Counted from the stretch's first letter, positions 238 to 58,294 are shown. The stretch: 64,000 nt of DNA from Planctomycetota bacterium (GCA_016209705.1 JACQVR010000134.1:64194-128193); one strand, 5' to 3'. A program made the numbers and translations. Notes: generated from the letters alone by a model not told the origin.

Positions 238-1464
238 ATGGCGGTTTACACGTACGAAGCGCGGTCCACCGAAGGGCGGAAGATCGACGGAACCGTGAAA
301 GCCTCGGACCGGGCGTCCGCCCTCGACCAGCTCAAGAGGAAGAACCTGACCGTCCTCCAGCTCACGGAGGACAGCGGGCTGGCCGCCAAGCGCACGTTGT
401 TCGGGCGGGCGCCGCGGGCGAAGGTTCGCACCAAGGACATCGTCGTCTGGACGCGGCAGCTTTCCACGATGATCTCCGCGGGCATCTCCCTCTTGGAGGC
501 GCTGGAGATCCTGTGCGAGCAAACGACCGATCCCGGGTTCCGGCGCGTCATGGACCGCATCATCGAGCGGGTCCGTGGCGGCGCCGACTTCTCCACGGCC
601 CTGGGCGAACATTCGAAGATCTTCACGGCGATTTTCGTGAACATGATCAAGGCGGGCGAGGCCAGCGGCAACCTGGACGTCATTCTCCTCCGGCTCGCCG
701 AGTATCTGGAGGCGACCGAAGAGATCAAGCGCGAAGTCAAAGCCGCTTTGGTGTATCCGTGCGTCTCGCTGACCCTGATTCTGGCCATCACGATCGGCCT
801 CATCGTCGGAATCGTGCCGAAGTTCCAGGCGATCTTCGAACAGCTCGGCATGAAGGAGCTCCCGTTGCCCACGGCCGTCCTCCTGGCGATCAGCAACTTC
901 ATGCGCAACCAGTTCTTCTTGATGATCGGCATGATCATTGTTCTGGTCGTGACGTTCATCCTGCTAAAGCGGACCAAGCCCGGCACGCGGATCTGGCACA
1001 AGTTCCTCCTGACGATGCCGGTCTTCGGTCCGATCATCCGCAAGGTGGCGATCTCCCGCTTCTCGCGCACGTTCTCGACGCTGATCCAGAGCGGCGTCCC
1101 CATGCTGGGCGCGCTGGACATCGTGGCCGGCACCGCGGGCAACGTGATCATCGAGTCGGCCGTGCTGAAGGCCAAGGACGCGGTCAGCCGGGGGGAGACG
1201 CTCGGCGATCCGCTCGCCTCGACCCGCGTGTTCCCGCCGATGGTGACGCGCATGATCGCGATCGGAGAGAAGACGGGCGCGCTGGAAAAACTGCTCTCCA
1301 AGATTTCGGACTTCTACGATTCCGAAGTCCGCGCCGCGGTGAAGTCCCTGACCTCGCTGATCGAGCCGCTCATGATCGGCACGATGGGATTGATCGTCGG
1401 CGGCATCGTGCTGGCGATCTTCATGCCGATCATCGACATCCAGAGGAAGCTGGCCGGTTCGTGA
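238..1464 (+). CDS. Type IV pilus / type II secretion inner-membrane platform protein (GspF/PilC family)
   Basis: The 408-aa product has the PilC/GspF N-terminus (MAVYTYEARSTEGRKIDGTVKASDRASALDQLKRKNLTVLQ), two T2SSF-like repeats and three TM segments. A GGAGAG ribosome-binding site sits 4 nt upstream of the ATG. Confidence 0.85.
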   Translation: MAVYTYEARSTEGRKIDGTVKASDRASALDQLKRKNLTVLQLTEDSGLAAKRTLFGRAPRAKVRTKDIVVWTRQLSTMISAGISLLEALEILCEQTTDPGFRRVMDRIIERVRGGADFSTALGEHSKIFTAIFVNMIKAGEASGNLDVILLRLAEYLEATEEIKREVKAALVYPCVSLTLILAITIGLIVGIVPKFQAIFEQLGMKELPLPTAVLLAISNFMRNQFFLMIGMIIVLVVTFILLKRTKPGTRIWHKFLLTMPVFGPIIRKVAISRFSRTFSTLIQSGVPMLGALDIVAGTAGNVIIESAVLKAKDAVSRGETLGDPLASTRVFPPMVTRMIAIGEKTGALEKLLSKISDFYDSEVRAAVKSLTSLIEPLMIGTMGLIVGGIVLAIFMPIIDIQRKLAGS

Positions 1465-1763
1465 TGGCGTGGTGCCCGAGAGGTCACGGAAGAAGCGGAG
1501 CGCACGGAGAAATCCCGTCACCGGAGACACGGAGCCACGGAGAAAAATTGGGGAGATGTGGAGATTGCTGGAGCCATGGAGATCGAAAGGAGTCCGATGG
1601 AGCTAACGCTCCCAAAAATATCTCCCTATCTCCCCCCTATCTCCAGCTCTCCTTGAAGAATCTTCTCCGTGCCTTCGTGCCTCCGGGGTTTGTACGCTCT
1701 CCGTGAACTCCGACTCCTCTTTGTGCTCGAACTCGGAGATTTTGCAGCAGGTTCTGAGTCGCG

Positions 1764-3407
1764 ATGGCATCCAGGGTGTCCAGCCGCATCCTTCCTCGAG
1801 AGCCGGGGGCCGGAGGCCTCCTGACGTGGCTGCCTCTGCTGCGCCTGGCGGTCGCGGGGTTGGCCGCGTACGTCGTTTTCCGCCAGGATCCCAAGCATCC
1901 CTTCCAGCGTCCCGAGTTCCTCCTCCTCGTCGGCGCTTCGGTCATCAACCTGCCGTATCTGCTGCTTCAGACCATGACCCGCGATCGCCGCAAGCTGGTC
2001 ATGGCCCAGCTCGCGATCGACATCCTGACCATCTCGGGGCTGGTCTACATGGCGGGCCCTTTGAGCCCTCACGCTTATTTCTACTTCGCCGTCGTCATCC
2101 TCGTCGCGCTGTTCATCAGTCCGCGCGCGGGATTGGGGTTCGCCGCTTTTTCCAGCGCTTTCCTGGTGCTCATCACGTCGCTGTATTTCACGGCCGCTCA
2201 CTTCGCGGGCATCGAGCTGCCGTATCTCGCGTCGCTCGCCTCGGACGAGATCGTTCCGCTGTACGGGATGCCGGAGCTGATGCTCTTCTCCCTCCTGCTC
2301 TACGTGGCGGGATTGCACGCGGTCGCCTGGCTGGCGGGGCGGCTGTCGGAAGAGCTCAACCGCGTGCGCATCCTCAATACGGAGATCCTTCAGAACATGA
2401 CGGGCGGCGTCATCGCGGTCGATCTTCAAGGCGCCATCGCGTTCGTGAATCCCCAGGCGGCTTCGCTGCTCCAGATTTCGGAGCCTTCCGCGCGCGTGGC
2501 CGGCAGGTCCTATGCGGAAGCATTGCCTTCCGAGATCTCCGATCTGTTCCAGCGGTCCTTGGCCCGGAACGAGCACGTCGAGCAGGAGGTGCGGATCGGT
2601 TCGATCCCGATCGGAATCTCGCTCTCGCCTCTGAGCGATGAACGCAACGTCGGAAGGATCCGGGGCGTCGTGGCCATTCTCAACGACCTGACCTTGAGGC
2701 ACGAGATGGAGCGGATGGCGAAGCGGGCGGAGCGGTTTCGGGCTCTGCTCGAGATCAGCGCCAGCATCGCCCACGAGATTCGCAACCCCATCGCCTCGAT
2801 CCGCGGCGCCGCCCAGGAATTGTCGGCCGTTCCGGTGTCCGGCGAGGACAATCACGCCCTGCTCAACATCGTCATCCGCGAATCCGATCGGCTCGACAAG
2901 ATCGTTTCGGATTTCCTGGACTATGCCGGCGATCGACCCGAAGAGCTGAAGCTGTTGAACGTGGCCGACCTGCTCCAGGAGGTCGTCTTGCTTCTGCAAA
3001 CCCGGGCCGGCGCGGGGCGCGTTCAGATCCGCCTGGAAACGCCCCGGGAAGCGACCTGCCGCGGGGCGCACGACAAACTCAAGCAGGTGTTTCTGAATCT
3101 GGGCCTCAACGCGCTCGAAGCCGGGGGGGAGAAGGGCGGGACGCTGGCCGTGCGATGCTTCCACGCCCACTCTCCGAAAGGGGACCTCCGGGAAGGCGTG
3201 CTGGTCGAGTTCGAGGACAACGGCCCGGGAATCGCGCCGGAACATCTCGCTCGGCTGTTCACCCCGTTTTTCACTACGAAGCCCCGCGGCACCGGCATGG
3301 GGCTGGCGATCGCGCGCAAGATCGTGGAGGATCACGACGGGTCGATCGTCATGGACAGCCGGGTCGGAAAGGGGACCGTCGCGAGAGTATGGCTGCCGTC
3401 CATTTGA
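1764..3407 (+). CDS. Membrane sensor histidine kinase (PilS-like architecture: polytopic N-terminus, PAS, HisKA, HATPase_c)
   Basis: About six N-terminal TM helices precede an H-box (EISASIAHEIRNPIASIRGAAQEL) and the N, G1 and G2 boxes (GTGMGLAIARKIVEDHDGSIVM). It lies immediately downstream of pilB/pilC, and no cognate response regulator is adjacent. Confidence 0.8.
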   Translation: MASRVSSRILPREPGAGGLLTWLPLLRLAVAGLAAYVVFRQDPKHPFQRPEFLLLVGASVINLPYLLLQTMTRDRRKLVMAQLAIDILTISGLVYMAGPLSPHAYFYFAVVILVALFISPRAGLGFAAFSSAFLVLITSLYFTAAHFAGIELPYLASLASDEIVPLYGMPELMLFSLLLYVAGLHAVAWLAGRLSEELNRVRILNTEILQNMTGGVIAVDLQGAIAFVNPQAASLLQISEPSARVAGRSYAEALPSEISDLFQRSLARNEHVEQEVRIGSIPIGISLSPLSDERNVGRIRGVVAILNDLTLRHEMERMAKRAERFRALLEISASIAHEIRNPIASIRGAAQELSAVPVSGEDNHALLNIVIRESDRLDKIVSDFLDYAGDRPEELKLLNVADLLQEVVLLLQTRAGAGRVQIRLETPREATCRGAHDKLKQVFLNLGLNALEAGGEKGGTLAVRCFHAHSPKGDLREGVLVEFEDNGPGIAPEHLARLFTPFFTTKPRGTGMGLAIARKIVEDHDGSIVMDSRVGKGTVARVWLPSI

Positions 3408-3408
3408 T

Positions 3409-3466
3409 AGGAAGTACGGAGTAAGAAGTCAGACGGTGGGCGCGCACTTCCTACTTCGTACTACCT
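3409..3466. terminator. Putative bidirectional hairpin terminator between the convergent histidine-kinase and DUF885 genes
   Basis: AGGAAGTACGGAGTAAGAAGT (3409–3429) and ACTTCCTACTTCGTACTACCT (3446–3466) pair at 18 of 21 positions around a 16-nt GC-rich loop. The element sits exactly between the two stop codons, and there is no U-tract. Confidence 0.35.
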
Positions 3467-5150
3467 ACTCTCCATCCCACCGCTCGATCATCATCCGCAA
3501 GGTCGGCAGCGGAATTGCCCCGTGCCGCAGGACTTCGTGATGAAATCGGCGAATGTCGAACCGCGCCCCGAGCCGCACTTGCGCCTCGGCGCGCAACGCC
3601 TGGATCTCCCGCTGGCCGACCTTGTAGGCCAAAGCCTGGCCCGGCCAGATGATGTAGCGATCGATCTCGTTCAGGATCTCGACGTCCGAGAGCGCCAGAT
3701 GCTCGCGGAAGAACTCGATGGCGCGCTCTCTCGACCAGTCGAACGCGTGAAGGCCCGTATCGACGACCAATCGCGCCGCCCGCCAGGCTTGGTACGTGAG
3801 CATTCCGTATCGCTCGAGATCGTTTTCGTAGACACCCATCTCGTCGGCCAAACGTTCGGTGTAGAGCGCCCAACCTTCCACGAACGCCGTGAAACCGACG
3901 TGCCGCCGGAACTTCGGCAGGCCTTCCAGCTCCATGGCGAGCGCGATTTGCAAATGGTGCCCCGGAACCGCTTCGTGCACCGCCAGGGCGGCCATCGTAT
4001 AGCGGGGGCGGGTTTCGGGCCGGTAGCAATTCGCGTAGAAAATGCCGGGGCGGGATCCGTCTTCCGGCGGACTGTAATAGAAGGCCGCCACGCTGTCTTT
4101 CTCGCGATATTCTTCGATGGCCTTCACTTCGTAGCCCGTCTTCGGGAGGCGGTCGAAATACTGCGGGAGCTTTGCGTCCACGTGGCGCAGGATCCTGCGG
4201 AAGCCTTCGAGATATTCCTCCCGGGAGGTCGCGAAATTGGCCCGATCCGCGCGGAGTCGGGCCGCGAACTCCTTGAGGTCGTCCGTCTTGGCGATCGCGC
4301 GCATCTCCCGCTCGATCGCGGCGAGCTCGTCCAGGCCGATGCGATGCAGGTTCTCCGCCGTCGCGTCGAGCGACGTGTGATAGCGGATGCGGAAGCGGTA
4401 GGCCGCTTCGCCTCCGGGCAGGGCCGAGAGGCCCGGCGCCTCCCGAGGGCGGTACTCCGATTCCAGGAACGCTTTCAGCTTCTCAAACGCGGGGCGGACA
4501 TGCGTCGCCGCGCCCTCCGGATCGGCGGTCGAGATCGGCCAGTCGGTCACCCGCGCCGCCAGATGGGCCTTGAGCTGATCGAGAACGCGGTCGACGGCGA
4601 TCCGAGGGGCGACGCGCCCCTCTCGTAGCCCTTCTCGGAGGTTTGCGATATACTGATCCATGTAGCGGGGAAACGCCTGGAGCCGCGCGGCGAACGTGCG
4701 GCGGCCCTCCGTGTCTTTCAGGGGATGGTGATTGACGAGTTCGAAGAGCCACACGTGGGGACCTTCCATCTGATCCACGTCCCATTGATAGAACTTGTGA
4801 TCGAAGGCTTCGATCGAAAGCTCCAGCCTCCGTATCAGGATGTCCGCGGTCACGCGATCGGCGTCCGTGAGCGCGGTCACGGCGCGAGCGCGGATCAGAA
4901 AGCTTTCCAGCGCGCGGCGCTCGGCCGCGCGGCCTTCGGCACTGAGGTCCGGAAGGAGGTGGTCATAGCGGCGGTCGCCCAGGTACGTCGCCCATACCGG
5001 GTCCTGGCGGAGCCGGAACTCCCAGTATTCGTCGCACAACGCGGCCAGCTCCGGCGAGCGGTCGGGGGCGGCCGCGCGGCCGCCGCAGGCGGCGCTCCCG
5101 AGCGCCCGAAGGGCCGCCGCCCCGAGGCGGATCGAAAAAAAGCGATTCAA
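3465..5150 (-). CDS. DUF885-family lipoprotein (putative metallopeptidase-like)
   Basis: The 561-aa product has a signal peptide with lipobox (LGSAACGG) and the HEAVPGHH motif characteristic of DUF885 proteins. Confidence 0.7.
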   Translation of the reverse strand: MNRFFSIRLGAAALRALGSAACGGRAAAPDRSPELAALCDEYWEFRLRQDPVWATYLGDRRYDHLLPDLSAEGRAAERRALESFLIRARAVTALTDADRVTADILIRRLELSIEAFDHKFYQWDVDQMEGPHVWLFELVNHHPLKDTEGRRTFAARLQAFPRYMDQYIANLREGLREGRVAPRIAVDRVLDQLKAHLAARVTDWPISTADPEGAATHVRPAFEKLKAFLESEYRPREAPGLSALPGGEAAYRFRIRYHTSLDATAENLHRIGLDELAAIEREMRAIAKTDDLKEFAARLRADRANFATSREEYLEGFRRILRHVDAKLPQYFDRLPKTGYEVKAIEEYREKDSVAAFYYSPPEDGSRPGIFYANCYRPETRPRYTMAALAVHEAVPGHHLQIALAMELEGLPKFRRHVGFTAFVEGWALYTERLADEMGVYENDLERYGMLTYQAWRAARLVVDTGLHAFDWSRERAIEFFREHLALSDVEILNEIDRYIIWPGQALAYKVGQREIQALRAEAQVRLGARFDIRRFHHEVLRHGAIPLPTLRMMIERWDGE

Positions 5151-5201
5151 GGGAACCTTTCTATATTTTGGCGCGCGGTATATTTAAACTAAACGAACCC
5201 C

Positions 5202-5981
5202 ATGGACAACACTTCTTCCTTCATCGTCCTGGTGGACCCCGACCGCAAGTTGCTCCAGCAGCTTCAGATGTCCTTGAAGGAACAGGGATACGATGTGCTC
5301 GCGGTGACGGAAGCGGAGGCCGGTTTGTCCGCCATCCGCCAGCGAATGCCGGACATGGTCATCACCGAAGTGGTGCTGCCCAACCTGGACGGATGGAGCT
5401 TCATCACGCAGTTTCGGTCGCTTCCCGGAGCCGCGTTCATTCCGGTGGTCTTCCTGTCGAACCAGAACACCGTCAAGGACCGCATTCACAGCTTCCGGCT
5501 GGGAGCGGACGATTACCTGGGCAAGCCGTTCGATACCGAAGAGCTGATCATCCGGGTCGCCCGCGCGTTGGACCGCCGGCGCGGGATCGAGCACACGGCG
5601 CGGGCGCAACGGGCCGCGCGCAAGTCGCCCAGCGGCGTCGGCTTGCACGGGACGCTGGGAGAAATGGGTTTGGCCTCCCTGCTGACCATCCTGGAGATGG
5701 AGCGCAAGAGCGGCATCCTGGAAGTGCGCCATCCGCCGCGCGGCGAGACGGCGGCCGTCCTGTTCAAGAACGGGCGCATCGTCCAGGCGTGCGTGGACGG
5801 CAAGGTCTCCCTGAAAAACCACGAAGCCGTTTACTACCTGTCCGAATGGTCCGGCGGCAAATTCGAGTTCACCTCGCTTCCGGTGGACGTCGACGACGAA
5901 ATCAACGCGTCCACTTCCTCCCTGCTCCTGGAGGCCGCTCGGCGTCTGGATGAGAACCGGCGTCGGGAGACCCACTATTGA
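5202..5981 (+). CDS. Response regulator: receiver domain plus C-terminal DUF4388 domain
   Basis: An N-terminal REC domain (LVDPDRKLL...DMVITEVVLPNLDGW, with Asp and Lys present) is followed by a DUF4388-like block (GTLGEMGLASLLTILEMERKSGILEV). Confidence 0.75.
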   Translation: MDNTSSFIVLVDPDRKLLQQLQMSLKEQGYDVLAVTEAEAGLSAIRQRMPDMVITEVVLPNLDGWSFITQFRSLPGAAFIPVVFLSNQNTVKDRIHSFRLGADDYLGKPFDTEELIIRVARALDRRRGIEHTARAQRAARKSPSGVGLHGTLGEMGLASLLTILEMERKSGILEVRHPPRGETAAVLFKNGRIVQACVDGKVSLKNHEAVYYLSEWSGGKFEFTSLPVDVDDEINASTSSLLLEAARRLDENRRRETHY

Positions 5982-6856: not shown

Positions 6857-6918
6857 GTTACGATAAATTCTCAAAACTTATTGTAACGTTACGAAATATT
6901 CTCAAAATTTATTGTAAC
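6857..6918. repeat. Two tandem 31-nt palindromic units (GTTACGATAAATTCTCAAAACTTATTGTAAC and GTTACGAAATATTCTCAAAATTTATTGTAAC)
   Basis: The two units form a perfect head-to-tail tandem whose junction TTGTAACGTTACGA is itself palindromic. The second unit ends exactly at the TAG stop of the convergent OMP gene. Confidence 0.65.
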
Positions 6919-45702: not shown

Positions 45703-45775
45703 TGCCGGGAGACGGATTCGAACCGTCAGCCTACGGCTTATGAAACCGCCGCTCTAACCGTTGAGCTATCCCGGC
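45703..45775 (-). tRNA. tRNA-Met (anticodon CAT; elongator type because G1-C72 is paired; could alternatively be tRNA-Ile2/lysidine)
   Basis: The reverse complement folds as a cloverleaf: acceptor GCCGGGA/TCCCGGC, D-arm GCTC...GAGC, anticodon stem GCGGT/GCCGT with loop TTCATAA, and T-arm GACGG-TTCGAAT-CCGTC. CCA is not encoded. Confidence 0.85.
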
Positions 45776-49170: not shown

Positions 49171-49389
49171 GGCGGCGGACTCCAAAGAGAAGCCCCAACA
49201 AAAGAACGCAAGACGCGTGCGGAGCTTATGAAGGCCGCCTGAAGCCGGCAGGAAAACTCCGAACTGCGCCCTCTCTCTCCCTTCCACAATAAATCTAACA
49301 TGAGATGGCGCGGAAGCAAGGCCGAATCGAGAAAAAAATCGTTGGCGCGCCGGACGGCGGCTTATAATTTCATGCCGGGCACCGGAGCG

Positions 49390-50079
49390 ATGGTTCGGCT
49401 GGCATGGCTGTCGATTTTGACCGGATGCGCGGCGGCAAGCTCACGGCCGTCCGGGCCTTTTGACATTCCCCGGGAATCGTTGGGGGAGGACGCGGTCGCG
49501 GTTCTGGATGAGCCGTCCGCGGTGGTCGATCTGCCGCTCACGCGCGTCGAGAGCCGGCCGGACATCTACGAGTTCCTCCTCGAAGAGCTGCCGTTCACCG
49601 CCGGCGTGCTTCGTGAACTGGGACGGGCGACGTACCGGATCCGGCGGGAAGCGCGGCCGGAGGGCGAGCCGGAGACGATCGTCTTCGACGACGGCGAAGG
49701 CATCGAGGTGCGCGCCGAACTGGTGCTTCGAGAGCGGACGCGGTGGATCTACGTCACCGACGGGCGATACGATCTGGGCCTCTTTTCCGTATGGAGCCGC
49801 GGCGTCGTCATCGTCGTGTATGAAGCGCGGGACGGAGCGCTCTGGACTCGGGCGCGCGTATATGCCAGATTGAAGGGGAAAGTCTTCGAACTGGGCGCGC
49901 TGGTCCTGGGCCTGCTTGAAAGCACGATCCGTTCGAAGGCGCTCGTGTTCGTCGATGCGGCGCGGGAAGTGGCGGAGCTGACGGCCGCCGATCCGGAGCG
50001 GCTCTATCGGAACGTGAAGGGTTCGCGCGAAGTGGACGCCGGCGTGCTCGAGGAGTATCGGCGGCGTTTCTTGAAATAA
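49390..50079 (+). CDS. Hypothetical lipoprotein
   Basis: Carries a lipobox (MVRLAWLSILTGCAAAS) and has no recognisable domain. Confidence 0.5.
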   Translation: MVRLAWLSILTGCAAASSRPSGPFDIPRESLGEDAVAVLDEPSAVVDLPLTRVESRPDIYEFLLEELPFTAGVLRELGRATYRIRREARPEGEPETIVFDDGEGIEVRAELVLRERTRWIYVTDGRYDLGLFSVWSRGVVIVVYEARDGALWTRARVYARLKGKVFELGALVLGLLESTIRSKALVFVDAAREVAELTAADPERLYRNVKGSREVDAGVLEEYRRRFLK

Positions 50080-50095: not shown

Positions 50096-50735
50096 TGGCG
50101 GCGCCGTGACGGCGGCCGAGACGATCGCCCCCGCCCTTTCTCAAGCATTTTGCTGCTTCAATGCGTCTGGACCCCAAAGGAGGGTTGAGCTGTGCGGGAG
50201 ATAAGTGCTCAAGAAAGGGCGGGGGAGGAAAGTCCGGGCTCCACAGGGCGGGATGGTTCCTAACGGGAACCGGCTTCGCGCGGAAGCGCGAAGTCAGGGA
50301 AAGTGCCACAGAAAACAAACCGCCCCGCCCTTTCTTCAGCGTTTGCTTCTTCCGACGGGACCCCTCCGGAAGGGTGTATTTCCGTTCCGGAGAAAAAAAA
50401 TGCTCAAGAAAGGGCGGGGCAAGGGTGAAACGGTGCGGTAAGAGCGCACCGCGCCTCCGGCGACGGAGGCGGCACGGCAAACCCCATCCGGAGAAAGTCC
50501 AAATAGGTGCGCGGATGAAGGCCGGCCCGGCCGAGAGCGCACGGGTAGGACGTTGGAGGCCGCGCGCGAGCGCGGTCCTAGACGGATGATCGTCACCCCG
50601 CCCTTTCTTCAGCGAAACGCTTAGAGGAGAGCGCGCCCTTTCGGAGGGATGTCGCTTCGACGAAGTTTTCGCGTTGGAGAAAGGGCGGGGAACAGGACCC
50701 GGCTTATGAAGCCGCCGTCACCGCGCCGCTCATCA
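50096..50735 (+). ncRNA. rnpB: RNase P RNA (bacterial type A) with three greatly expanded peripheral hairpins
   Basis: The conserved regions are present: GGAAAGTCCGGGCTCC (CR-I), AAGGGTGAAACGGTGCGGTAAGAGCGCACC (CR-II/III), GTCCAAATAGG (CR-IV) and ACAGGACCCGGCTTA (CR-V). P1 is formed by GGCGGCGCCGTGACGGCGGC (5') and GCCGCCGTCACCGCGCCGC (3'). Roughly 100-nt hairpins occupy the P3, P12 and P18 positions. Confidence 0.8.
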
Positions 50736-50790: not shown

Positions 50791-51483
50791 ATGAAGCGGC
50801 TGATCGGTTGGATGGCGCCGGCGGCGGCGCTCCTGGCGCTCGCTCTCTCGGCGAACGCTCAGGACGATAAAGAGGCGCTCAAGAAGAAGATTTTGGAGTC
50901 CGTCGAGAAGAAGCTGAAGGAGGAAGAGGAGCGCATTCTCAAAGAGGTCGCGAAGCTCATCGACGATGAGCTGGGCAAGGGGATGGGCAAGAAGTCCGAC
51001 GACAAGCCCAAGGAAGATCCCCCTCCGGCCAAGAAGGCGGGTTACCTCGGCATCCAGGCGGAAGAAGTTTCCCGCGAGGAGTGCGAGGAGCTGAAGATCG
51101 AAGGCGGGGTCCGCGTCTACGCGGTGCATCCCGACAGCCCGGCCCAGAAGGGAGGGGTGGAGGAAGGCGACATCATCGTCGAGATCGACGGCGAGAAGAT
51201 TCTCGATTTCGCGACGCTGCGGCCCGTGCTGCTCAAGAAGGGAGCCGGCGCCGGCGTGACGATGAAGGTGCTGAGAAGCAAGAAGTCGCGCGAGATCAAA
51301 GTGACGCTGGGCGTCCATCCGGAGGAGCAGTCGCGCGGCGTTCCGGAACAGCGCCCGAAGTCGGACCGGAAGGCCGAAGCCAAGAAGACCGAGGAGCCCT
51401 CCAAGGACGAATCCTCGAAAACCTCGAAAGGCGACCAGGATCTCCGCGAACGCCTGCGGAAGTTCCTGGAGAAGCAGAAGTAG
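50791..51483 (+). CDS. Secreted PDZ-domain protein with Lys/Glu-rich flanks
   Basis: A signal peptide (MKRLIGWMAPAAALLALALSANA) is followed by a PDZ core (GYLGIQAEEVSREECEELKIEGGVRVYAVHPDSPAQKGGVEEGDIIVEIDGEKI). Confidence 0.65.
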   Translation: MKRLIGWMAPAAALLALALSANAQDDKEALKKKILESVEKKLKEEEERILKEVAKLIDDELGKGMGKKSDDKPKEDPPPAKKAGYLGIQAEEVSREECEELKIEGGVRVYAVHPDSPAQKGGVEEGDIIVEIDGEKILDFATLRPVLLKKGAGAGVTMKVLRSKKSREIKVTLGVHPEEQSRGVPEQRPKSDRKAEAKKTEEPSKDESSKTSKGDQDLRERLRKFLEKQK

Positions 51484-51659
51484 CGGCGGAAACGAATCGC
51501 GGATTCGGCCTCCCGCCCGAATCCCCCTGGCTTTTTTCACGCGAACCTTTCGCGCCGGTGTGTTACTCTATCCGCTAGACGTTCGGGGCGATCCGACGTC
51601 AAATAATCGTTGGCCGAGTGACCCGTGATCGCCTGCTCTGGGGTGGAGAACGCCGTTCG

Positions 51660-52253
51660 ATGCCGGATCCCGCGGAAGTCGATCTGATCCAACGCTGCCA
51701 GAAGGGCCATGAAGGCGCGTTCCGCGAATTGATGGAACGCTACCAACGTCGGACCTACTGGATCGCGCACAACATGCTCAACAATTACGATCTCGCCCAG
51801 GACATTTCTCAGGAAGCGTTCATCCGCGTCTTCCGCAATCTGCGCAACTTCGACGTAAAGAAAAACTTCTACACGTGGCTCTACCAGATCGTCGTGAATC
51901 TGTGCATCGACCATCTGCGCAAGATGTCGCACGGGCGGACGGTGGATCTGGACGAGGTGGGAGGGTTGCCGGACGACGAGAAGCGGAACCCGCATGAAGA
52001 GTCCGGTCGCGCCGAGTTGCGCGGCCGGGTCCAGAAGACGCTGGATCGCCTTCCGCCGAAGTACAAGGCGGTCATCATGCTGCGCGACATCCAGGGCTTT
52101 TCCTGCGAGGAGATCAGCGAGATCGTCGGCTGCACGAACGCGACGACGCGGTGGCGCCTGCACCGGGCGCGCAAGCTCTTCAAGGCGTTGTGGACGGGCA
52201 AGCGCGTCGAAGCGGCCCGCGACGACGACGGCGACGCCGACCTGTTACAATAA
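51660..52253 (+). CDS. ECF-type RNA polymerase sigma-70 family factor (sigma-24/RpoE-like)
   Basis: Contains sigma region 2 (YWIAHNMLNNYDLAQDISQEAFIRVFRNLRNFD) and region 4 (LPPKYKAVIMLRDIQGFSCEEISEIVGCTNATTRWRLHRARK). Confidence 0.85.
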   Translation: MPDPAEVDLIQRCQKGHEGAFRELMERYQRRTYWIAHNMLNNYDLAQDISQEAFIRVFRNLRNFDVKKNFYTWLYQIVVNLCIDHLRKMSHGRTVDLDEVGGLPDDEKRNPHEESGRAELRGRVQKTLDRLPPKYKAVIMLRDIQGFSCEEISEIVGCTNATTRWRLHRARKLFKALWTGKRVEAARDDDGDADLLQ

Positions 52254-52274
52254 GTTTTGAGAATATATTGTAAC
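52244..52274. repeat. 31-nt palindromic element GTTACAATAAGTTTTGAGAATATATTGTAAC (family copy D, inverted orientation)
   Basis: It overlaps the sigma-factor stop codon and lies between the sigma and anti-sigma genes. Its centre is the reverse complement of the TTCTCAAAA centre seen in the other copies. Confidence 0.6.
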
Positions 52275-52361
52275 GGGCGGCTTCCCCGGGAGCGGGGTCC
52301 GCGAGGTTTCCAACATTTCGGGTGGAGTTCCGTACCACCTACAGAGCCGGAGACTTATTTC

Positions 52362-52979
52362 ATGGGTTGCGAGGACATGAAGGACCTGCTGGCGCTGGAA
52401 GCCGGCGGGGATGCTCAGCCGGATGAACGGATCGCCGTCGAATCTCATATTGCGGTGTGTCCCGAGTGCGCGCGCGAATTGACGGATTATCGCCAACTGC
52501 GCGCCGCCCTGGCTGAATTGCGCGAAGGCGCGGTGCCGTCCAGAACGTTCGAGCGGATCCGCGGGCAGGTCGGCAGCGCCATGAAGTTCACCATCGTCCA
52601 GCGCTCCACCGCCTCATGGTTCGTGCGCGCCGCCGCCGTGCTCGTCGTGGGCGTATCGGTGGGCTTCTCCAGCGCTTCGATCTATCGCCAGGTCACCCAG
52701 CTTCGGCCCGCGGTGGAAGCGGAGGATGGCGTCGCGGACCAGGACCTGGAAATGGAAAAGGGCGCCAGCAACGTTTCCGGCAGGCCCTATCGGACCGCCG
52801 CCGGAGCGCGCGGTTTCGGCATCATTTCGCCGCCCTCGGTACTGGATCCGCTCCGCGGCGGCTTCACGTTCCGCATCGACCGGACGCCGGAAGCCAAGGT
52901 GAATGATTCTTCTAAAGACGGCGTCTACTACCTCCCGCGCGTCGAAAGCTTCCCCGATCCTCATGAGGTGGATTTCTAA
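52362..52979 (+). CDS. Anti-sigma factor (zf-HC2 zinc-finger type, single TM segment)
   Basis: A H-x3-C-x2-C motif (HIAVCPECAREL) is followed by a TM helix (WFVRAAAVLVVGVSVGF). It lies directly downstream of the ECF sigma gene. Confidence 0.7.
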   Translation: MGCEDMKDLLALEAGGDAQPDERIAVESHIAVCPECARELTDYRQLRAALAELREGAVPSRTFERIRGQVGSAMKFTIVQRSTASWFVRAAAVLVVGVSVGFSSASIYRQVTQLRPAVEAEDGVADQDLEMEKGASNVSGRPYRTAAGARGFGIISPPSVLDPLRGGFTFRIDRTPEAKVNDSSKDGVYYLPRVESFPDPHEVDF

Positions 52980-52998
52980 AGCGGGTCCTGGAACCAGC

Positions 52999-54090
52999 AT
53001 GAACGCGCTCCTGTGGATGGCGCTGTCGGCCGGCGTCGCGTCGGCCGCGCAAGAGCCCCCCCCCTCCCAGGAGGAACCCAGCGCGCTCGAAAGGATCGAA
53101 CGCGACGTCGCCGCCGTCGTCGAGCGCGCGCGCAAATCCGTCGTTCAAGTCACGGTCCGTTGCGCCGCCATGGTCGACCGCATGCCGGTCTCCGAGACGG
53201 TGAAGCTTTCGGGCGTCGTCTATTCGGAGGACGGCGTCATCCTTACTGACGCTGGCGGCCTGGATTCGGCCGTCGAAGTGCGGGTGACGCTGCCGGAAGG
53301 ACACGAGACGTTCGCGACGGTCGTGGCGGTGGATCCCCAGACCTCGATCGGCGTCTTGCGCATCAAGGCCACGGGACTGACGCCGGCCGAATTTACGGAC
53401 TCCCCGGAAATCCGGCAGGGCAGTTTCGCCGTGGTCGTCGGAAATCCCATGGGTCTGCGCGGATCCTCCTCGGTTGGCTTCCTGAGCGGCACGGGACGCT
53501 CCATTGTGTGCCGCGGCCGCCGCTTCGACGACATGCTTCAACTCACGACTTCCGTCCAGCCGGGCGACTGCGGCGGCTTCGTCGCCGACGCGCGCGGCCG
53601 TCTGATCGGCATGGTGCATTCCAACCACGTCAGCCGCGCGCTCGATCCCGCGAGCATGAGCATCCTGATGCTCCTGGGCAAGAACGGGGCCAATTTCATG
53701 CAAGCCGGAATCCAGATGACGGCGTTCGCCACGCCTTCCAGCGTCGTGCGGATGGTCGCCGAACGGATCCTGAAATACGGCCGCATGGTTCGCGGTTGGG
53801 CCGGGCTGTCGGTGCGGCCGATCGATCTGTCGAAGCGGGAGCAGCTCGATCTTCCGCCGGGCCACGGCGGAGAAATCTTCTCGGTCGACAAGTCCGGTCC
53901 GGCCCGCAAAGCGGGCCTCAAGCGCGGCGACATCCTCCTGTCGTTCGACGGCGAACCGGTGAGCGATCTTCAGGCGCTTCGGTGGAAGGTCCAGCGGATC
54001 GAGGAGCCGCGCGACGTGAAAGTCGTCATCCTGCGCGGCGACGAACGCCTCGAAAAGAACCTTCGAGTGGAGCTTGAACCCCAGCCGTGA
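52999..54090 (+). CDS. HtrA/DegP-like trypsin-fold protein with PDZ domain whose catalytic triad is degenerate (predicted non-catalytic)
   Basis: A signal peptide is followed by an HtrA scaffold in which TNNH is replaced by TDAGG (no His), the Asp position by Ser, and GNSGG by GDCGG (Ser to Cys). The PDZ domain is intact. Confidence 0.7.
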   Translation: MNALLWMALSAGVASAAQEPPPSQEEPSALERIERDVAAVVERARKSVVQVTVRCAAMVDRMPVSETVKLSGVVYSEDGVILTDAGGLDSAVEVRVTLPEGHETFATVVAVDPQTSIGVLRIKATGLTPAEFTDSPEIRQGSFAVVVGNPMGLRGSSSVGFLSGTGRSIVCRGRRFDDMLQLTTSVQPGDCGGFVADARGRLIGMVHSNHVSRALDPASMSILMLLGKNGANFMQAGIQMTAFATPSSVVRMVAERILKYGRMVRGWAGLSVRPIDLSKREQLDLPPGHGGEIFSVDKSGPARKAGLKRGDILLSFDGEPVSDLQALRWKVQRIEEPRDVKVVILRGDERLEKNLRVELEPQP

Positions 54091-55220
54091 ACCGGGTTGC
54101 GTCGGCTTTGGCGTTTCTGGTGCTGCTGGCGGCCGGGATCGCGGGCGGAGTAGGCCTGAGCCAACGCTTGGAGCCGCCCCCGTTTCATCCCTCCGCCGCG
54201 GACACCGCCGCGGCGCTTCAGGCGGCCTTCAACCGCGCGGCCGAAACGGCCATGCGCTCCGTCGTTCACATTTCCACCAAGGTCCAATTCGCGTCCCGGG
54301 AGAACGTCGGCTCGGGCATCATCGTCAGCGATCAGGGTCACATCGTGACCAACGAGCACGTCATCCGGCTGGTCAAGGAGATCGTCGTGAGGTTCGTCGA
54401 CGGCGCCGAATATGAAGCCACTCTGGTGGGACGGGATCCAGAATCCGATCTGGCCGTCGTGAAGATCGATCCCGAAGGCCGCCCGCTGACGCCGATCGCC
54501 TTCGCCGATTCCGAGGCCGTGCGGGTGGGGGACGTCGTGTTCGCGATCGGCAGCCCGTTCGGATACAACCACACGGTCACCGGCGGCATCGTCAGCGCCA
54601 AGCATCGCCGGACCGAGCTCAATCAGCCGTACGAAGATTTCATCCAGACCGACGCGGCCATCAATCCCGGGAATTCCGGCGGCGCGCTCGTGAACCTGAA
54701 CGGCGAGCTGGTGGGACTCAATACCGCGATCGTCTCCCAGACGCGCGCCAGCGAGGGTATCGGATTGGCGATCGCTTCGGACCTCGTGAAATGGGTGCAG
54801 CAACGGCTGATCCGCGACGGGCGGGTGAAGCGTGGGTATCTGGGCATCGATTCCCTGGACGTCAATCCGAAAATCGTTCGCCAGGACGACCGGGTCCGCG
54901 GCCACCGCCGGTTCAAGGGCATTCAGGACATGAAGGACCTCCTGGAGGAGCTTGGGTTATCGGAAGCCCGCGGCGTGATCATCACGCGCGTGGAGGACCG
55001 CTCTCCAGCGGCCTCGGTGCCGCTGCAACCTCTGGATGTGCTGACGGAGATCGACGGCAAGCCGATCCGCAATCGCCATCAACTCTTCTTCCAAGTGGCC
55101 GAACTCGAGCCCGGCAAGAGAGTCAAATTGAAATACGTCCGCGATCGCCGCTTGCTGGAAGCGGAAGTCGAGCTGGCCGAGCGCCGTCCCGTCGACCCGT
55201 GGGGCGGCCCGCAGCGATAG
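54087..55220 (+). CDS. HtrA/DegQ-family serine protease with PDZ domain (canonical triad)
   Basis: A GTG start overlaps the upstream stop (GTGA). The catalytic residues are present: HIVTNEHVI, DLAVVKI and NPGNSGGALVNLNGELVGLNTAI. Confidence 0.85.
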   Translation: MNRVASALAFLVLLAAGIAGGVGLSQRLEPPPFHPSAADTAAALQAAFNRAAETAMRSVVHISTKVQFASRENVGSGIIVSDQGHIVTNEHVIRLVKEIVVRFVDGAEYEATLVGRDPESDLAVVKIDPEGRPLTPIAFADSEAVRVGDVVFAIGSPFGYNHTVTGGIVSAKHRRTELNQPYEDFIQTDAAINPGNSGGALVNLNGELVGLNTAIVSQTRASEGIGLAIASDLVKWVQQRLIRDGRVKRGYLGIDSLDVNPKIVRQDDRVRGHRRFKGIQDMKDLLEELGLSEARGVIITRVEDRSPAASVPLQPLDVLTEIDGKPIRNRHQLFFQVAELEPGKRVKLKYVRDRRLLEAEVELAERRPVDPWGGPQR

Positions 55221-58232: not shown

Positions 58233-58294
58233 GTTACAATAAGTTTTGAAAATTATTTGTAACGTTACGATTAATTCTCAAAACTTATTGTAAC
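58233..58294. repeat. Two tandem 31-nt palindromic units (GTTACAATAAGTTTTGAAAATTATTTGTAAC and GTTACGATTAATTCTCAAAACTTATTGTAAC)
   Basis: The pair begins one base after the pabB start codon and ends at the TAG stop of rocA. Confidence 0.65.

Follow-up and report, generated by a model that had tools for sequence, protein, structure and literature searches.

A triad-less HtrA-fold protein encoded beside an ECF sigma/anti-sigma pair in Planctomycetota

We analysed a 64 kb stretch of DNA from a Planctomycetota bacterium (the window) by open reading frame (ORF) listing and by Pfam and NCBIfam scans. Its region 51660–55220 encodes, on the plus strand and in this order, an extracytoplasmic function (ECF) sigma factor, a ZAS-type anti-sigma factor, an HtrA-fold protein that has lost its catalytic triad (the pseudo-HtrA, or dead copy) and a complete, DegS/AlgW-like HtrA (the live copy). 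An earlier sequence-only reading of the window had proposed an arrangement of sigma factor, single-pass anti-sigma factor, dead HtrA and canonical HtrA, which is borne out by the ORFs and the domain scans. What we regard as the new finding, judged from sequence comparison, is a conserved aromatic C-terminus on the anti-sigma factor, found together with a clade of pseudo-HtrAs that appears to be locked to the sigma/anti-sigma pair. The best explanation for the system would be an autoregulated envelope-stress operon of this Planctomycetota bacterium, and the sequences suggest that the dead protease senses or shields the tail of the anti-sigma factor rather than cutting it.

Triad loss, age and genomic linkage of the pseudo-HtrA

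The pseudo-HtrA (52999–54090, plus strand) is a putatively secreted protein of 363 amino acids with a signal peptide, a dead protease domain and one PDZ domain. Pfam recognises both the chymotrypsin-fold domain and the PDZ domain (Trypsin_2, 5.1e-21; PDZ_2, 2.1e-13). We aligned the protein in three independent ways: with phmmer to solved AlgW, DegS, DegP and DegQ chains, with BLASTP to the live paralogue, and with MAFFT to 47 homologues and canonical HtrAs. All three alignments place TDAGG opposite TNxHV (His to Gly), DPQTSIGV opposite DPESDLAV (Asp to Ser) and GDCGG opposite GNSGG (Ser to Cys), in agreement with the triad loss that the sequence-only reading had proposed, and in none of them does a shifted His, Asp or Ser rescue the triad. 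Because the triad positions hold Gly, Ser and Cys, the protein lacks the catalytic signature of the HtrA/S1C family and is a structural (non-peptidase) homologue rather than an active S1C peptidase. It also scores below the curated NCBIfam cutoffs for degP_htrA_DO (167.5 versus 416.2 bits) and for the DegS equivalog (133.4 versus 422.95).

The AlphaFold2 (AF2) model of the pseudo-HtrA has a mean predicted local distance difference test score (pLDDT) of 89.4 and a predicted template modelling score (pTM) of 0.84. Its best Foldseek matches are AlgW, DegS, DegQ and DegP, with E-values of 1e-25 to 1e-29 and target-normalised TM-scores of up to 0.88 (0.87–0.88 for AlgW and DegS). The PDZ domain had been described as intact, and this holds: the carboxylate-binding loop is kept (RGWAGLS, versus RGYLGI in the live copy), and in 20 genomes that carry both paralogues the mean pairwise identity of the PDZ domain is 45% for the dead and 48% for the live copy. 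The protease domain of the dead copy is more relaxed in the same genomes, with 49% identity versus 67% in the live copy. The N-terminal sequence MNALLWMALSAGVASA/AQE looks like a signal peptide; the hydrophobic N-termini of relatives are shorter.

The clade also shows a variable insertion after the nucleophile strand (residues 209–240, the L2 region; consensus xxLLxLFGKxxxDxx). About half of the close clade has the insertion, which reaches a much greater length and is highly charged in remote branches (L078 and L083). Its confidence in the AF2 model is low, with a pLDDT of 51–70.

The 47 database homologues are 39–53% identical to the pseudo-HtrA, and every named one comes from a Planctomycetota metagenome-assembled genome. 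They are set off from canonical HtrAs by a clear gap in score (1e-60 versus 5e-35). All 47 lack the His and the Asp, and 43 have the Cys. Likewise, none of 45 non-identical dead-type ORFs from genome and metagenome contigs, some of them partial, has the H/D/S triad, and 42 have the Cys. A profile search of 1.84 billion representatives covered the wider clade, and we examined the best 150 (representatives at 50% identity). The triad is missing in 53 of these, which have in common a PGDxGG motif in which x is C, A, S, T, G, Q, P, V or M. In a neighbour-joining tree from which the triad columns were excluded, 45 of the 53 form one clade free of H/D/S sequences, which points to a single ancient loss of the triad. 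By this comparison, the GDCGG group is one branch of a wider PGDxGG clade of triad-less HtrAs, and the pseudo-HtrA belongs to an old, constrained family rather than being a case of recent decay. Members of its clade are at present annotated as 'trypsin-like peptidase' or 'S1C serine protease' and should not be called proteases.

Outside the main dead clade, P0056 and several other representatives carry partial triads. One example (LTTVSVV / DDQSNLAV / PGNSGG, from a cluster of 12 member sequences) has lost the His and the Asp and kept the Ser; erosion of the HtrA triad thus seems to have happened more than once.

The pseudo-HtrA keeps its genomic place across the family. The order sigma / anti-sigma / pseudo-HtrA is found in every close locus with enough flanking sequence; close relatives show one or two PDZ-only genes, the sigma gene, the anti-sigma gene, the dead HtrA gene, usually a gene for a PDZ protein of about 260 amino acids, and the live HtrA gene. 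In nine remote branches, where the nucleophile position holds Q, A, T, S or P, eight of the pseudo-HtrA genes are directly preceded by a gene pair for an ECF sigma factor and a zf-HC2 anti-sigma factor, and the ninth (L082) is cut by a contig end that leaves only a partial ORF upstream. The position directly downstream of the anti-sigma gene is the one held by RseB and MucB, and the same adjacency is seen in all related loci. Comparative genomics of close and remote loci therefore supports the proposed tie between the pseudo-protease and the anti-sigma factor.

The live copy (54087–55220, plus strand; 377 amino acids, GTG start; Trypsin_2, 2.3e-36; Trypsin, 3.1e-18; PDZ) has a complete triad (TNEHV / DPESDLAV / GNSGG), one PDZ domain and, as read from its sequence, a 20-residue hydrophobic N-terminal anchor, which is the architecture of DegS and AlgW. 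Since it falls under the cutoff of the NCBIfam DegS equivalog TIGR02038 (253.7 versus 422.95 bits), it is DegS-like in architecture and not a DegS orthologue. All 29 complete neighbouring live copies have H/D/S. Among the nine remote loci, six have a complete HtrA gene no more than two genes downstream, and three (L078, L084 and L082, which is truncated) have none next to the pseudo-HtrA gene.

The dead and live genes of the window had been taken to be translationally coupled by a GTGA overlap. The overlap exists (54087–54090, where the GTG start of the live gene overlaps the stop codon of the dead gene) and recurs in L080, but since most close relatives hold an additional PDZ gene between the two, the coupling is a local feature. 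Similarly, the dead/live pair itself is conserved in 22 loci that contain full-length copies of both, whereas L078, L084 and L082 reduce the invariant part to the first three genes. As far as the sequenced loci tell, the conserved unit is sigma / anti-sigma / pseudo-HtrA, and dead/live coupling is frequent and not universal.

The anti-sigma factor and its C-terminal tail

The anti-sigma gene (52362–52979, plus strand) encodes a ZAS-type (zf-HC2, 1.1e-05), single-pass protein of 205 amino acids. Its ORF opens at 52257, and the conserved start is the ATG at 52362 (MGCEDMKDLL); homologues all begin with MGCE or MNCD. The protein matches the NCBIfam anti-sigma family at 4.2e-11, which is under the cutoff. 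Its zinc motif reads C3-x25-H29-x3-C33-x2-C36, with C3, H29, C33 and C36 invariant among 23 homologues. In the AF2 model, residues 1–54 are helical with pLDDT above 90, a transmembrane helix spans residues 84–117, and periplasmic residues 118–205 have a pLDDT of 43–62 and are devoid of secondary structure; the periplasmic part is predicted to be disordered.

Outside the zinc-finger domain and the transmembrane helix, the 23 homologues barely align, with the exception of the last ∼17 residues. This C-terminal tail motif (52929–52976, plus strand; YLPRVESFPDPHEVDF-COOH) has the consensus [YFH][YH]LP[RH][VA]E-x6-7-[DE][KRV][DES][FYW]-COOH and reads YYLPRVESFPDPHEVDF in the window. L191, P192, R193 and E195 are invariant, and F205 is nearly so. 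All 23 homologues, which are the only matches of the database search and all family members, so that there is no outgroup for the tails, end in F, Y or W. Using a hidden Markov model made from eight hand-extracted sequences, we found 34 anti-sigma factors in the related loci, and every one of them ends in an aromatic residue (F in 25, Y in 8, W in 1). In the nine remote branches the YLPRVE segment fades and the terminal aromatic residue remains in all nine tails (VDF, VDF, FCY, LGY, LSF, MAF, VGY, RSF and VKF), one of which was read from the partial upstream ORF at the contig end. The background frequency of an aromatic last residue is 5.5% among 1053 long ORFs from the same loci, a set in which many ORFs are not genuine genes.

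Unassembled outer-membrane proteins (OMPs) and MucE are recognised by the DegS and AlgW PDZ domains through C-termini such as YxF and WVF (PMC8103513, PMC8545111). The anti-sigma tail looks like such a classic HtrA-PDZ ligand, with an OMP-like aromatic residue and a free carboxylate. The sequence-only reading had suggested that the PDZ domain of the pseudo-HtrA binds C-termini of misfolded OMPs and presents or withholds the anti-sigma factor; the OMP-like tail of the anti-sigma factor was not part of that proposal. As this C-terminus sits on the anti-sigma factor itself, a direct PDZ–tail contact would be the simplest hypothesis.

Proposed pathway, alternatives and known systems

Our preferred model, to which we give somewhat less than an even chance, is that the pseudo-HtrA, on a DegS scaffold, acts as a periplasmic partner of the RseB kind whose PDZ domain binds the anti-sigma tail, and that the live HtrA is the site-1 protease. 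RseB and MucB keep the site-1 protease from cutting RseA and MucA (PMC8103513, PMC8545111); the pseudo-HtrA would be the dedicated periplasmic partner of the anti-sigma factor in the same position and role. In unstressed cells, its PDZ domain would hold and shield the OMP-like aromatic C-terminus, and the neighbouring YLPRVE segment may rest uncut in the dead substrate cleft. Outer-membrane proteins that fail to assemble, or periplasmic proteins that misfold, would then compete with their C-termini for the PDZ site, and the released tail would be cut at site 1 by the live HtrA, which it possibly also activates, as OMP peptides activate DegS. Next, a site-2 protease would set the sigma factor free to transcribe its own operon from a GAAC-N17-TACT/CGTC promoter (see below). 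Given a DegS scaffold in the pseudo-HtrA and a ligand of the DegS type on the anti-sigma factor, we consider this model the simplest.

Several points weigh against this model. Export of the pseudo-HtrA is presumed from its N-terminus, and the hydrophobic N-termini of many clade members are short (8–12 residues). If the role were binding alone, the near-invariance of the Cys at the nucleophile position in this sub-clade would be left unexplained. The receptor of the tail could equally be the live HtrA or one of the one to three PDZ-only proteins of the cluster. The more than 60 tails are phylogenetically related, and their independent support comes to about 10 deep lineages. Finally, the sequence does not constrain the direction of the effect, and the pseudo-HtrA could act as a shield or as an adaptor.

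A more specific proposal, which we hold to be rather unlikely, is that the anti-sigma factor is 'self-baited': its tail would mimic the C-terminus of an unassembled OMP, and the pseudo-HtrA would be a non-cutting receptor of this bait, a decoy sensor that replaces RseB. Free OMP C-termini would displace the bait from the dead HtrA and so expose it to the live HtrA or the site-2 protease. If this were true, a pseudo-enzyme decoy sensor would replace RseB across a large part of Planctomycetota.

Alternatively, the dead and live copies may form hetero-trimers in which the dead PDZ domain recruits the tail or sets the activation threshold, thus promoting or tuning site-1 cleavage and not blocking it. 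HtrA trimers are allosteric (PMC8545111), and the pseudo-protease MamO, which belongs to the HtrA family, promotes activity in its live paralogue MamE independently of its own triad (PMC4794232). The GTGA overlap in the window and in L080 also fits with such an adaptor, as does a live HtrA gene that follows downstream, at most two genes away, in almost every close relative and in six of nine remote loci. Nevertheless, the dead and live copies are only 26% identical, a separate PDZ gene stands between them in most relatives so that the coupling is not conserved, and an adjacent live HtrA is missing in L078, L084 and L082 (the last with a partial upstream ORF only). In addition, to judge by the N-termini only, the dead copy looks soluble, with a cleavable signal peptide, and the live copy membrane-anchored. 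We regard a mixed oligomer as improbable.

We give no better chance to the possibility that the dead HtrA is an effector of the regulon only, that is, a protease-free holdase or chaperone that is induced by the sigma factor and stands outside the signalling. DegP has a protease-independent chaperone function (seen, e.g., in the S210A variant), in which the HtrA fold and PDZ domain bind unfolded clients without cutting them. That state is engineered or temperature-dependent and belongs to a complete enzyme, whereas the loss described here is natural, affects three residues, is ancient and is linked to an anti-sigma factor. The place of the pseudo-HtrA in the same putatively autoregulated operon, its retained fold and PDZ domain and the abundance of other secreted PDZ proteins in the cluster that resemble quality-control factors would suit an effector, and htrA/degP is a classic member of the sigma-E regulon (PMC8103513). 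However, an effector would not be expected to stay directly behind the anti-sigma gene across deep divergence while other effector-like genes vary, and the conserved aromatic C-terminus of the anti-sigma factor would be left unexplained.

It is very unlikely that the pseudo-HtrA is still an enzyme, namely a cysteine-type HtrA and the true site-1 protease, with Cys191 as the nucleophile and a relocated base such as His207 in 'VHS', the position equivalent to chymotrypsin Ser214. The prevalence of the Cys (43 of 47 homologues, 42 of 45 locus copies) and of His207 (44 of 47 homologues) would agree with this idea. Sister branches in the same genomic context, though, have A, S, T, G, Q, P, V or M at the nucleophile position, and four remote branches have ITG, IAS, VAS or ITA at the His207 position, against IHS in L081. 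Moreover, since the Cys-less members keep the His in three of four cases, Cys and His207 are not coupled.

An artefact, be it a sequencing error, a pseudogene with a frameshift or a duplicated htrA that decayed recently, has only the prior that single-residue oddities can be errors in its favour. It is refuted by the independent deposition of an identical protein (P0001) and by full-length ORFs with the same substitutions in more than 90 homologues at 38–53% identity, and the AF2 model is confident as well.

The system resembles the sigma-E/RseA/RseB/DegS and AlgU/MucA/MucB/AlgW pathways in that the ECF sigma factor is held by an anti-sigma factor that spans the membrane once, that the gene of the periplasmic partner follows right after the anti-sigma gene, as in Escherichia coli and Pseudomonas aeruginosa, and that a membrane-anchored single-PDZ HtrA is the likely site-1 protease. 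AlgW and DegS are also the best sequence and structure matches of both HtrA paralogues of the window. In contrast to E. coli, where degS is unlinked to rpoE, the HtrA gene is located inside the sigma operon. Unlike RseB and MucB, the partner is a triad-less HtrA that has no MucB_RseB match in Pfam or NCBIfam, and any equivalence would be functional only. Unlike RseA, the anti-sigma factor is ZAS-type with a predicted disordered periplasmic tail.

The Mycobacterium tuberculosis sigE-rseA-htrA cluster contains genes for an ECF sigma factor, a ZAS-type anti-sigma factor and an HtrA-family protein in the order observed here. Mycobacterial HtrA is a complete serine protease, and its solved structures are among the phmmer and Foldseek matches of the pseudo-HtrA; we know of no dead paralogue or aromatic anti-sigma C-terminus in the actinobacterial cluster. 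Aromatic C-terminal peptides (YxF, WVF) that are read by an HtrA PDZ domain are shared with the DegS and AlgW/MucE pathways (PMC8103513, PMC8545111), with the difference that the aromatic C-terminus here is carried by the anti-sigma factor itself and not by OMPs or a separate MucE-like protein alone.

As in the MamO/MamE pair, an HtrA gene has been duplicated, has lost catalysis and has been retained next to a live HtrA, here in a presumed non-catalytic role; the locus would thus be a second natural example of a dead HtrA alongside a live one. MamE-dependent proteolysis needs MamO and not the MamO triad, and pseudo-proteases have repeatedly arisen by duplication (PMC4794232). The pseudo-HtrA does not belong to the MamO family, as it reaches only 23.2 bits against the NCBIfam MamO cutoff of 800 and has no TauE domain. 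MamO, which takes part in biomineralisation, combines a TauE transporter domain with a di-histidine metal site; the pseudo-HtrA has a PDZ domain and is tied to a sigma/anti-sigma pair.

To our knowledge, the means by which ECF anti-sigma factors detect envelope damage are little understood outside Proteobacteria and Firmicutes, and almost none of the pathways of the many ECF sigma factors of Planctomycetota have been characterised experimentally. Against this background, the HtrA pseudo-enzymes form a large, old clade whose genes keep to a single type of sigma/anti-sigma pair, and the clade appears to go together with a short linear tail motif. The literature on HtrA pseudo-proteases and planctomycete ECF factors that we covered, which is incomplete and does not in itself prove novelty, contains no description of a sigma/anti-sigma/dead-HtrA arrangement; HtrA, PDZ and trypsin go unmentioned in the main text of the ECF re-classification paper.

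Sigma gene, promoter, palindrome and neighbouring genes

The sigma gene (51660–52253, plus strand) encodes a protein of 197 amino acids that matches Sigma70_r2 (3.6e-19), r4_2 (9.4e-14) and Sigma70_ECF (5.7e-12) and scores 110 bits against NCBIfam sigma70-ECF (cutoff 42.9). It carries sigma regions 2 and 4 only, as expected for the ECF sigma factor of an ECF sigma/ZAS pair, and the sigma proteins of relatives are 67–74% identical to the window copy. A candidate ECF-type promoter (51542–51570, plus strand; CGAAC-N17/18-TACTCTA) is located 118 nt 5' of the sigma start. A pattern of this type occurs once in the 64 kb window, with no further copy found there, including ahead of the PDZ-only gene described below. 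In 16 of 26 distinct related loci, we found GAAC-N16-18-(CGTCGAAT/TACTAAT) 76–121 nt upstream of the sigma gene, where shuffled sequences lead to an expectation of 0.2; it should be noted that this pattern was defined post hoc. A consensus scan found no sigma-70 promoter. From the tight spacing of the genes (19 nt from the anti-sigma gene to the dead HtrA gene, and a 4-nt overlap of the dead and live HtrA genes), we infer that the operon is expressed as one autoregulated transcript.

Between the ECF-type promoter and the sigma start codon, most relatives have a conserved CGTTATAAT / CGTCTATAAT box (L001, L003, L006, L039, L041, L044, L046, L050, L051, L059, L060 and L064), of which the window has a weak version, AAATAATCG. 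The box looks like a second, housekeeping-type −10 element for basal expression.

The sequence-only reading had also noted a 31-nt palindrome between the sigma and anti-sigma genes. A perfect copy (GTTACAATAAGTTTTGAGAATATATTGTAAC) is indeed present at this junction (52244–52274, plus strand), but it overlaps the 3' end of the sigma gene, for which it supplies the last two codons and the stop codon. The window contains four copies, versus 0 expected, located at 6858–6917 (minus strand), 52244–52274 (plus strand) and 58265–58293 (minus strand), either single or in direct tandem. The pattern, GTTACAATAAGTTTTGAGAAT.TAT.GTAAC, is AT-rich in a genome of 64% GC and lies at or over stop codons; the hairpin has a folding energy of −17.9 kcal/mol (z = −5.96). 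As the palindrome was not found in the 84 related loci searched, we do not count it as part of the module and reject a regulatory function within it. It looks like a genome-specific post-gene element of the repetitive extragenic palindrome (REP) type. In L001 (∼4950–5270), a small additional ORF is inserted between the sigma and anti-sigma genes, and its product resembles, by eye, the '23S rRNA intervening sequence' proteins, which are four-helix bundles. This ORF and the palindrome of the window together suggest that the sigma/anti-sigma spacer tolerates insertions.

Upstream of the sigma gene, 50791–51483 (plus strand) encodes a putatively secreted PDZ-only protein with a signal peptide, a charged coiled region and one PDZ domain (Pfam PDZ_2, 9e-16). 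It is a shorter form of a two-PDZ protein encoded 5' of the sigma gene in relatives, with homologues upstream of sigma in L003, L007, L008, L037, L039, L050, L058, L064 and L069. A hairpin followed by a T-run was seen by eye past this gene (∼51501–51537, plus strand) and was not called by the consensus terminator scan.

Related clusters encode up to three additional secreted PDZ-only proteins, of ∼170 amino acids with one PDZ domain, ∼400 amino acids with two and ∼260 amino acids with one. The ∼260-residue protein is encoded between the dead and live HtrA genes in L002, L007, L040, L041, L050, L052 and L059, and PDZ-only proteins are also found 5' of sigma in L003, L007, L037, L050 and L058. 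The window genome retains only the shortened, one-PDZ version of the ∼400-residue protein. In some remote branches HEAT repeats are fused to the PDZ protein (L083); for L084, Pfam gives HEAT_2 only.

Further upstream, 49300–50079 (plus strand) encodes an unannotated protein of 259 amino acids that has no Pfam or NCBIfam match. Its homologues head the same cluster in L050, L058, L060 and L064, and the protein may be part of the module. The ORF-poor stretch between this gene and the PDZ-only gene is explained by a full-length bacterial class A RNase P RNA (50186–50639, plus strand; 230.6 bits). A tRNA gene lies at 45703–45775 (minus strand). Downstream of the live HtrA gene, converging genes on the minus strand encode a class IV aminotransferase, identified by domain scan, and a pabB-like protein, judged by eye from its translation.

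In the remote locus L078, a gene directly 5' of the sigma gene (342–4169) encodes a protein of 1275 amino acids with many PDZ domains and AhpC-TSA/Redoxin domains, which hints at a connection to oxidative envelope stress.

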